Shown here one piece after another: positions 46,405-48,760 of a stretch of DNA of 64,000 nt (within the stretch, counting starts at the first letter, position 1; each line of letters begins with the position of its first letter). Below the pieces are notes generated by a model that made no database searches, was not told the DNA's origin, and saw nothing but the letters and a program-made list of their open reading frames with translations. The stretch is from a bacterium. GTDB lineage: Bacteria; Patescibacteriota; Minisyncoccia; UBA6257; UBA9933. The DNA lies in the NCBI GenBank assembly GCA_030693235.1, contig JAUYBE010000006.1:71189-135188 (forward strand), written 5' to 3'. The position numbers were made by a program, and so were the translations under genes.

Positions 46405-47660
46405 ACACGCAAATCAAAACAACTTGGCGGAAGGTGAAATTAGGAGATGTTGCAAATGTCTTGCCAGGTTTTGCATTTAAGAGTTCGGAGTTTAAAAAGG
46501 ACGGCGACATACCAGTTATTAAGATCAAAAATATTACTGACGATCTAAATGTTTCTATGGAAAACGGGGAGTATCTTGATGAATCTGCTTTGAATGAAAA
46601 AACCAAAAAATATTTGATTAGCAATAGCGACATATTAGTTGCGATGACGGGGGCGACGGCGGGGAAAGTTGGCAAGTTTCGATCAAATAAAAAAGCGTTA
46701 CTGAACCAGCGTGTCGCAAAAATCAGCCCCAAAAATATTGATGCGAATTTTTTATGGATTCTGTTGGGCAATAAAGATGCAATCAATCTTTTATATCGAC
46801 TTGCCGATGGAGCCGCACAACCGAACATGAGTGGTGGACAGATAGAAAATCTTGAGTTCAGAATACCTGCACGGATTGAGGATCAAAAACAAATCGCCGA
46901 TGTTCTTTCCGCATACGACGATCTGATCGAAAACAACACGAAGCGGATTAAGATTTTGGAACAAATCGCGCAGGCGATTTATAAGGAGTGGTTTGTTTCT
47001 CCAGTGAATGGTGGCAATCTGCCAAATGGATGGAAAAATGTCGCTCTCCGAGATGCTATTGAATCCTATATAGGTGGTGGATGGGGCAAAGAAGAACCTG
47101 ATGATAATTATCCAAGTCCCGCATATGTTATCCGCGGTACGGATATACCAAACGCGGCAATGGGTAACATCTCTACTTGCCCACTTAGATATCACAAGCC
47201 TTCGAATTTGCGCGTCAGGGTTTTGCAAGGTGGTGATTTAGTGTTTGAGGTGTCGGGCGGTAGCAAGGGACAACCGGTAGGGCGATCTCTATTAATAACA
47301 ACCAATCTTCTTGGTCAATTTAAGCAAAATGTAATTTGCGCAAGTTTTTGTAAATTGATCCGGCCAAATCGAAGCAAGATTTCGCCATTCCAACTATATG
47401 AACAGATACTGAGCTGGTACGAAAATGGAGTTATTGAAAAATATCAGGTTCAATCTACGGGCATAAGCAACTTTAAGTTTGAATCGTTTATTGAGGAGGA
47501 GAAAATTACATTACCGCCAGATGGGATAAGAGAAAAATTTGATCATTCAATATCCCCTTTGTTTGATGAAATTTATTCACTGGGAAATCAAAATCAAAAC
47601 CTCCGCCAAGCCCGAGATTTGCTTTTGCCGAAGTTAGTAAGTGGGGAAATAAAAGTATGA
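46401..47660 (+). CDS. hsdS: Type I restriction-modification system, specificity subunit S (two target-recognition domains)
   Basis: Duplicated TRD architecture with conserved central and C-terminal coiled-coil spacers (LLPKLVSGEI-type ending). Sits between hsdM and hsdR. Confidence 0.85.
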   Translation: MNTQIKTTWRKVKLGDVANVLPGFAFKSSEFKKDGDIPVIKIKNITDDLNVSMENGEYLDESALNEKTKKYLISNSDILVAMTGATAGKVGKFRSNKKALLNQRVAKISPKNIDANFLWILLGNKDAINLLYRLADGAAQPNMSGGQIENLEFRIPARIEDQKQIADVLSAYDDLIENNTKRIKILEQIAQAIYKEWFVSPVNGGNLPNGWKNVALRDAIESYIGGGWGKEEPDDNYPSPAYVIRGTDIPNAAMGNISTCPLRYHKPSNLRVRVLQGGDLVFEVSGGSKGQPVGRSLLITTNLLGQFKQNVICASFCKLIRPNRSKISPFQLYEQILSWYENGVIEKYQVQSTGISNFKFESFIEEEKITLPPDGIREKFDHSISPLFDEIYSLGNQNQNLRQARDLLLPKLVSGEIKV

Positions 47661-48760
47661 AATTTGACGACCTAAAAAATATTTGGAAAGAAATTAAGCC
47701 AAGCGAAGAAGATTTTACCGCCATGCAAAAAGAGGAACAAATCAAAGTTTCGAGTTGGAACGAGTCTGGCGGAAAATATGTGGCCGTAGTTTCTGATTCA
47801 GCACACACCTTAGAGGATAATGCTCGATACAAATATCTTGCCTCTTATATTACACAGAAAGATGAAGTGATAGGTATCAAGTTGCAACGATTTAAAAAAG
47901 ATCAGCAAGGTAGTCTTTTGCCCGAACCTCAGGAGTTCAGCATTCCGTTTAAACAGGCTCATAAATTAGCTGATTTCTTACAATTCCTTAAGGAAGCAAA
48001 TCTCGGATCGTTAACTTCGGGAAATTTTCAATTGGTAGATAAGTTGGAACTTGATCCAGATTTATATGCAAAACTTGTAACTTTATCGTCAGATGAGAAA
48101 GGGCAGCAAAGCTTGCAGCAACTTATTAACGACGGCTATTTACATTTAAATCTTGATTTGTCAGAGCTAATTAAGAAAGGAATTTCGGTATCTAAAATTG
48201 ACGAAAGATTACAGAAGTTAGATGTTTTTGAAAGAATGCTCAGCAACAAAGACCTAAAAGAGGTAAAAGATATTCAAACTGAACTCAAAAAAATGCCATG
48301 GATATTTGGTCCCGAATATATTTCTTATGATGTAAGAGATGCTGGTGAAGATGGCGTCCCCGACGGCCGACTTAAAAGGATTGACGGCTTAAGCGATGTT
48401 TTGGAAATGAAACTTCCCTCAGCAAAACTTCTAAAACAAGACGATAAACACCCATCGAGACAACATATGTATGCTGAACTGGCTCAAGGACTGGGACAGC
48501 TTACTGGGTATTTAGAATATTATGACTCAGAATATTCAACAGAACGCGATGATGAAGGCAATGAAATAATGGAAGATATGTATGCCAAATACTATAAACC
48601 CAAAGGTATTTTATTGATTGGCAGAAGAGAAACCGCACACCCCAAAAGACTGAGGCGATTATTATCATATTTTCACCGGATAGAGGTTCTAACCTATGAT
48701 GATCTTTTAGATAGAGCACGAAATGGATTAAATAATTTAAAAACGCAAAGAGAGCCATGA
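47657..48760 (+). CDS. Hypothetical protein Y (367 aa), embedded between hsdS and hsdR. It carries a putative PD-(D/E)xK nuclease-fold C-terminal domain (Shedu/DUF4263-like or NucS-like)
   Basis: Candidate catalytic core ...GVPDGRLKRIDGLSDVLEMKLP... (PD...D/ExK) followed by Q..GY. Overlapping start/stop with both neighbours. Confidence 0.6.
   Translation: MKFDDLKNIWKEIKPSEEDFTAMQKEEQIKVSSWNESGGKYVAVVSDSAHTLEDNARYKYLASYITQKDEVIGIKLQRFKKDQQGSLLPEPQEFSIPFKQAHKLADFLQFLKEANLGSLTSGNFQLVDKLELDPDLYAKLVTLSSDEKGQQSLQQLINDGYLHLNLDLSELIKKGISVSKIDERLQKLDVFERMLSNKDLKEVKDIQTELKKMPWIFGPEYISYDVRDAGEDGVPDGRLKRIDGLSDVLEMKLPSAKLLKQDDKHPSRQHMYAELAQGLGQLTGYLEYYDSEYSTERDDEGNEIMEDMYAKYYKPKGILLIGRRETAHPKRLRRLLSYFHRIEVLTYDDLLDRARNGLNNLKTQREP

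Follow-up and report, generated by a model that had tools for sequence, protein, structure and literature searches.

Why should a Type I restriction-modification (R-M) operon, which already encodes the HsdR nuclease, carry a gene for a second nuclease? The question is raised by a 64,000-nt stretch of DNA from a bacterium of the Patescibacteriota (GenBank assembly GCA_030693235.1, contig JAUYBE010000006.1, positions 71,189 to 135,188; hereafter the window), in which the gene of a protein here called Protein Y lies between hsdS and hsdR. A preliminary description of the window, made from its letters alone, had taken Protein Y for a PD-(D/E)xK nuclease and had named a Shedu-like effector as the first option. 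We find that Protein Y belongs to a known family of anti-phage nucleases, Shedu (SduA/DUF4263), and is an ordinary representative of it. The best explanation of the locus, to which we give a probability of about 0.7, is that a Type 1 Shedu nuclease is co-transcribed with a complete Type I R-M system and most likely acts as an autonomous second layer of defence.

Protein Y and the Shedu family

DUF4263 was placed in the PD-(D/E)xK superfamily in 2012, and the first validation of Shedu is said to be that of Doron et al. 2018. As a single-gene defence system Shedu was first validated in B. cereus (Loeff et al., Gu et al.). The open reading frame (ORF) of Protein Y is real, and all peptide stretches quoted in the preliminary description are found in its translation. 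In NCBI the protein is MDP3015015.1 (100% identity), which is titled 'DUF4263 domain-containing protein [bacterium]' and comes from a 228-kb contig of a metagenome-assembled genome. Pfam PF14082 (SduA_C, formerly DUF4263) matches residues 202-351 at 55.8 bits, above its gathering score of 27 (E = 8.1e-15, profile positions 4-159 of 159). Sixteen SduA models of PADLOC match Protein Y as well, the best with E = 2.3e-17, and several of them reach its N-terminal half (e.g. residues 49-218 and 55-363). The NCBIfam scan gave nothing relevant. There are 117 homologues at E <= 0.001, most of them free-standing proteins of about 360-400 amino acids (aa) annotated as DUF4263 or as 'Shedu anti-phage system protein SduA domain-containing protein'. 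Their sources belong to the Candidate Phyla Radiation (CPR): Yonathbacteria, Microgenomates, Minisyncoccota, Saccharibacteria, Paceibacterota and Kerfeldbacteria.

Of the motifs noticed earlier, D...ExK corresponds to P235-D236 and E250-M-K252 and Q..Y to Q281-LTG-Y285, and E202 adds a motif I. As shown in Table 1, where conservation was counted over an alignment of 58 homologues, these motifs are conserved in 57-58 of the 58 and are therefore not due to chance. In B. cereus Shedu, motifs I to IV are E204, D249, E264/K266 and Q295, and the D249 and E264 mutants lose defence (Gu et al.). The spacing from D to E is 14 residues in Protein Y and 15 in B. cereus, and that from K to Q is 29 residues in both (K266-Q295 in B. 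cereus). Motifs I and II are 34 residues apart in Protein Y compared with 45 in B. cereus, which may reflect a shorter motif II loop. The catalytic set E202, D236, E250, K252 and Q281 is complete and conserved, and Protein Y is predicted to be catalytically competent.

A sequence profile search of the PDB found E. coli SduA (PDB 8PS4/8PS5; Loeff et al.) only and missed the Type 1A Shedu of B. cereus B4264 (PDB 8TI8/8TI9). With HMMER, residues 239-362 of Protein Y align with 275-410 of E. coli SduA (8ps4), an alignment that puts D247-x2-E250-x-K252 of Protein Y onto D283-x2-E286-x-K288 (E286-V-K288). The family profile strengthened this match to E = 1.5e-8 among PDB sequences; here residues 234-367 pair with 275-410, a span that takes in D-x2-E-x-K and the C-terminal LTYDDL helix. 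E. coli SduA is thus the closest solved relative by sequence, and it is also the top Foldseek match of the predicted structure.

Protein Y was modelled as a monomer with AlphaFold2, using the 58 homologues. The mean predicted local distance difference test score (pLDDT) was 77, and most of the nuclease domain reached 85-95. The modelled nuclease core consists of helix 203-211, strands 221-229, 234-241 (which begins with P235-D236) and 246-251, helix 273-294, strand 317-320, helix 329-336, strand 342-345 and helix 347-365. Around the named residues it has the canonical restriction-endonuclease-like order alpha-beta-beta-beta-alpha-beta, the lack of which the preliminary description had proposed as evidence against a nuclease. 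The domain fits solved Shedu structures better than other PD-(D/E)xK families. Pfam, PADLOC, motif conservation and the modelled core all agree on a PD-(D/E)xK nuclease, and the profile and structure searches suggested as checks (DUF4263 above threshold, E. coli SduA on top) point to Shedu. They speak neither for nor against the anti-R-M counter-defence sensor that had been named as another option. One detail has to be corrected: the stretch KGILLIGRRETAHPKRLRRLL, formerly described as a basic helix, is modelled as the beta strand 317-320 followed by the short helix 329-336.

About 200 residues precede the Pfam match. They form a core of beta sheet plus helix and a helical linker, for which reason Protein Y is a Type 1 Shedu (with an N-terminal regulatory domain) and not a Type 2 (nuclease only). 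These residues had been described as a helical domain throughout. This holds for the linker, whose modelled helices are 116-119, 134-145, 147-158, 168-175 and 178-196, but not for residues ~50-113, which form a four-stranded sheet plus a helix with pLDDT 82-88 in both the full-length and the N-terminal-only models; residues 1-47 are poorly modelled. A helical linker domain is also found in solved Shedu proteins (Loeff et al., Gu et al.). The N-terminal region is conserved across 24 homologues. Few sequences share it: when 1.84 billion cluster representatives were scanned in full with HMMER, only 17 matched at E <= 0.001, nearly all of them of SduA length. In this narrow, clade-specific family Protein Y differs from B. 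cereus Shedu.

In the model the N-terminal core weakly resembles a PUR/PC4/Whirly-like fold. Type 1A, the largest class of Shedu, has sPC4/Whirly N-terminal domains that are thought to bind single-stranded nucleic acid (Gu et al.). The modelled N-terminal domain of Protein Y is compatible with this class, at scores too low for a claim of membership. It shows no homology to EcSduA residues 1-145, by which the E. coli-type clamp is recognised.

Genomic context of the clade

Protein Y is encoded by the fifth of six genes, and Pfam identifies its neighbours on both sides as hsdS and hsdR, as the preliminary description had placed them. At all five junctions of the operon the genes overlap by 4 bp (ATGA). 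Accordingly, sduA is probably coupled to the R-M genes in translation. The block contains 28 promoter-like sites (25.1 +/- 5.3 expected from shuffled sequence) and 17 terminator-like sites (11.5 +/- 4.1 expected), both counts lying within about 1.3 standard deviations; being near the shuffled expectation, they are consistent with a single transcription unit and are otherwise uninformative.

We compared 23 distinct loci, drawn from GTDB genomes and metagenome assemblies, that encode close homologues of full length (>= 43% identity; Table 1). Type I loci account for 13 of the 23, with the order hsdS, sduA, 0-1 extra gene, hsdR and with gene overlaps or very short intergenic gaps. In a further six, sduA adjoins Type II, III or ISP R-M genes, which brings R-M adjacency to 19/23. 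No R-M genes are recognisable at the remaining four: L006, L009, L013 (which is short) and L046 (which lies in a mobile-element region). In a broader tblastn search, for which diverse HsdM, HsdR and HsdS sequences served as queries, the flanks of the non-Type I loci again showed no Type I genes. The two closest relatives with usable context, those of L050 (68% identity) and L043 (65%), both lie outside Type I operons.

Nine complete operons were compared for co-divergence. HsdM and HsdR co-diverge tightly (Spearman 0.87) and SduA tracks them moderately (0.50-0.58), values that are descriptive because the pairs are not independent. Identity of SduA ranges over 52-77% across operons where that of HsdR spans 33-74%.

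Shedu genes within R-M loci are not new. Gu et al. counted 602 of 5,499 Shedu genes within Type I, II, III or IV R-M systems and 87 within BREX, and proposed that Shedu complements these systems. The locus described here is the same phenomenon (Gu et al. 2023/2025). In their main text neither a fixed position nor an analysis by clade is given; in the present sample hsdS-sduA-hsdR is found at 13 of the 23 loci. Since both the family and its nesting in R-M loci are known, Protein Y is one more member in a setting of a known kind; small additions are the regular hsdS-sduA-hsdR order within the clade and the narrow N-terminal domain. The operon is also of modest value as an example of six fully overlapping genes in a small-genome CPR-type bacterium, in which a Type I R-M system is packed tightly with one or more additional defence nucleases and a cargo gene without annotation.

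This cargo gene, in the slot between hsdM and hsdS, encodes a 221-aa protein with no match in Pfam, NCBIfam or PDB sequences. Its sole match is to the PADLOC candidate-defence family PDC-M14B (residues 127-210, E = 1.8e-8); a literature search for PDC-M14 gave nothing, and no homology was found to the genes of similar size that fill this slot in L001 and L048. In homologous operons the slot holds SoFic, DUF3800 (PDC-M04A), an AAA_14/DUF4143 ATPase (PDC-S01), NYN, Bro-N (PDC-S13) and several unannotated genes, the products being without mutual similarity. Fic/SoFic genes recur within the operons of L004 and L014. With such unrelated contents the slot looks like a hypervariable cargo site. Related operons retain sduA between hsdS and hsdR while this cargo is swapped, and several of them are flanked by serine recombinases or tyrosine integrases.

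A Type IV restriction gene of the GmrSD type (DUF262/DUF1524) directly follows several of the Type I operons with Shedu, and the region of L001 additionally carries a DUF2779/Cas4-like gene. Three or four defence modules are thus stacked in these islands.

An autonomous or a restriction-coupled nuclease

Three observations support the autonomy of Protein Y. The combination of this N-terminal domain with this nuclease is found within Type I operons and also elsewhere, which argues against an obligate partnership with the Hsd proteins; six loci adjoin Type II, III or ISP genes instead of Type I; and across operons SduA varies less than HsdR. The position between hsdS and hsdR would then reflect a tendency of defence genes to enter R-M operons as cargo, by which they would share expression and mobility with the R-M genes and need no obligate physical partnership. 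Such behaviour is supported by the unrelated genes of the hsdM-hsdS slot and by the recombinases and integrases that flank several operons.

By analogy with solved homologues, Protein Y would assemble into a homotetramer through its nuclease domains. In uninfected cells the N-terminal and linker domains would hold the nuclease in an autoinhibited resting state (Loeff et al., Gu et al.); in E. coli SduA the N-terminal domain restrains a toxic nuclease domain, and the same overall logic may apply here. The N-terminal domain would recognise a nucleic-acid cue associated with infection, inhibition would be released, and the enzyme would nick or cut phage DNA. Because of the weak PUR/PC4/Whirly-like fold in the model, single-stranded or structured DNA is a more likely cue than blunt ends recognised by a clamp as in E. 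coli SduA.

A less probable explanation couples the function of the nuclease to restriction, in the role of a guard or of a finisher. As a guard it would be kept latent by the Hsd complex, like PrrC or Ronin, and set free once that complex is blocked by a phage anti-restriction protein. As a finisher it would sense the DNA ends or single-stranded DNA left by restriction of phage DNA and then degrade that DNA. Coupling is favoured by the 13 of 23 loci of the clade with sduA in the hsdS-hsdR slot and the six more beside Type II, III or ISP genes, an R-M association far above that given for Shedu generally (602 of 5,499). The ATGA overlap at either end of sduA points to translation together with HsdS and HsdR, and free DNA ends, which are a product of restriction, activate E. 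coli SduA. On the other hand, the same type of protein adjoins mechanistically unrelated R-M types and sometimes none, which speaks against a specific contact with Hsd proteins, and the loci are phylogenetically related, so that their counts are not independent. The adjacency may also merely mirror what CPR defence islands contain; to our knowledge, CPR genomes hold few types of defence besides R-M.

PrrC, from the EcoprrI Type IC locus, and RonA of Ronin are precedents for an effector embedded in, and controlled by, a Type I locus, and like sduA their genes are nested in or tightly linked to the R-M genes. That of PrrC presumably lies between hsdS and hsdR. The likeness of Protein Y to them is one of gene position only: PrrC is a tRNA nuclease of the ABC-ATPase type and RonA a membrane protein of 61 aa, both of which Hsd proteins hold latent until anti-restriction factors trigger them, whereas Protein Y is a predicted DNA nuclease with a putative sensor domain of its own, and its relatives act as single-gene systems. 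The gene of B. cereus Shedu stands alone, unlike that of Protein Y in its R-M operon. Partner-dependent variants of Shedu do exist, as in the two-component KELShedu, but the KELShedu partner, a small WYL-like protein whose gene lies directly upstream, bears no likeness to anything at the present locus.

In a broader form of coupling, which we likewise hold to be doubtful, the CPR-centred SduA clade with its narrow N-terminal domain would be a dedicated R-M accessory that senses the products or the failure of restriction. It would have been selected to adjoin any type of R-M system, preferentially in the hsdS-hsdR slot, and would finish destroying the invader; in these organisms other means of processing broken DNA may be scarce. 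Should the R-M association of the clade reflect real functional coupling, it would offer a tractable case for cooperation between Shedu and restriction.

It is very improbable that Protein Y is a housekeeping endonuclease for mismatched or branched DNA, like NucS/EndoMS (PDB 2VLD, 5GKE), which came to lie in the operon by chance. There is a structural match to NucS, but it covers the shared nuclease core only (105 residues aligned) and Shedu structures score higher. The Pfam scan of Protein Y found no NucS family at E <= 0.1. NucS also differs in its N-terminal domain and linker and in its mismatch-repair function and genomic setting: all sampled contexts of the Protein Y clade with identifiable neighbours are defence or mobile regions, with no repair locus among them. 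The repair nuclease was rejected on the profile, the structural score and the context.

That Protein Y is a decayed pseudogene, or a piece of HsdR or HsdS separated by a frameshift, is refuted. The 4-bp overlaps superficially resemble a frameshifted junction, but HsdS (419 aa) and HsdR (1040 aa, with its own HSDR_N from residue 5) are both complete, and Protein Y has a separate family of 117 homologues and intact catalytic residues.

The operon, its borders and other elements of the window

The features of the window and the loci of the context sample are collected in Table 1.

Table 1. Coordinates of sduA, its domains and motifs, the host operon, related loci and a repeated element
Feature	Position	Strand	Remarks
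sduA (Protein Y)	47657-48760	+	367 aa + stop, ATG start; complete Shedu SduA gene
N-terminal domain core, residues 48-113	47798-47995	+	four antiparallel strands + helix; putative sensor/regulatory domain
Helical linker, residues 116-196	48002-48244	+	modelled helices
DUF4263/SduA_C PD-(D/E)xK nuclease domain, residues 202-365	48260-48751	+	
Motif I, E202	48260-48262	+	58/58 homologues; placed by position on B. cereus E204
Motif II, P235-D236	48359-48364	+	P 58/58, D 57/58; by position B. cereus D249
Motif III, E250-M-K252	48404-48412	+	E and K both 58/58; by position B. cereus E264/K266
Motif IV, Q281-x3-Y285	48497-48511	+	Q and Y both 57/58
Host operon radC-hsdM-221-aa gene-hsdS-sduA-hsdR	43506-51879	+	from ORFs, Pfam and overlaps
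radC	43506-44174	+	RadC-like JAB protein; ATGA-coupled to hsdM
hsdM	44171-45742	+	Pfam HsdM_N + N6_Mtase
221-aa cargo gene	45739-46404	+	unannotated; ATGA-coupled on both sides
hsdS	46401-47660	+	Pfam Methylase_S; 419 aa, complete
hsdR	48757-51879	+	HSDR_N, SWI2_SNF2, T1R_D3-like, T1RH-like_C; 1040 aa, complete
Type I loci			window, L001, L004, L007, L008, L014, L044, L045, L047, L048; contig-truncated L011, L017, L040
L015			split Type ISP enzyme immediately upstream of sduA
L010			LlaMI-type Type II endonuclease downstream of sduA
L012			C5 methylase downstream of sduA
L050			Type II endonuclease upstream of sduA
L043			N6_N4 methylase plus ResIII beside sduA
L003			N6_N4 methylase beside sduA
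Downstream defence region, L001	12220-15434		
Downstream defence region, L048	12264-14039		
Downstream defence region, L049	13563-15269		
Palindromic element copy	52871-52955		in pgk ORF 52548-53927
Palindromic element copy	54932-54997		in RNase H ORF 54852-55346
Palindromic element copy	36561-36633		
Palindromic element copy	24601-24843		

The same six genes are carried by a Logan contig (SRR13727537, 8699 nt; L051) from another read set and an independent assembly, equivalent to about 43426-52124 of the window. The contig ends 80 nt before radC on one side and 245 nt past hsdR on the other, which suggests strain-level presence or absence of the island, or repeats at its borders.

A tRNA-Gly(CCC) lies at 43280-43351, 155 nt upstream of radC, where the operon starts. 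The last 24 nt of its 3' end and the 13 nt downstream (43328-43364, 37 nt) recur with 78% identity at 43426-43462, 98 nt further on. This partial duplicate may have been left as a scar when the R-M/Shedu island integrated. No att-type direct repeats were found to flank the operon: the tRNA-Gly 3' duplicate is upstream only and has no counterpart downstream of hsdR. Just downstream of hsdR, a 39-nt direct repeat (52092-52130 and 52440-52478, 97% identical) flanks an ORF of 64 aa (52204-52398).

Directly upstream of hsdM are radC and, before it, a gene for a RhuM-family/Fic fusion protein (42204-43208, + strand). In L008, too, hsdM is preceded by a RadC homologue (44% identical).

Elsewhere in the window we observed a short palindromic element with the termini GTCATTGCGAG...CTCGCAATGAC, for which 10 terminus matches were found and 0.76 expected. 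Two of its copies are inserted in frame within housekeeping genes, where they add the peptide ...RGVPQSGTTKQSNNSTEIASPSARNDT... to phosphoglycerate kinase and ...SLRAEGEAIPKRLPRAKALAMT... to RNase H.

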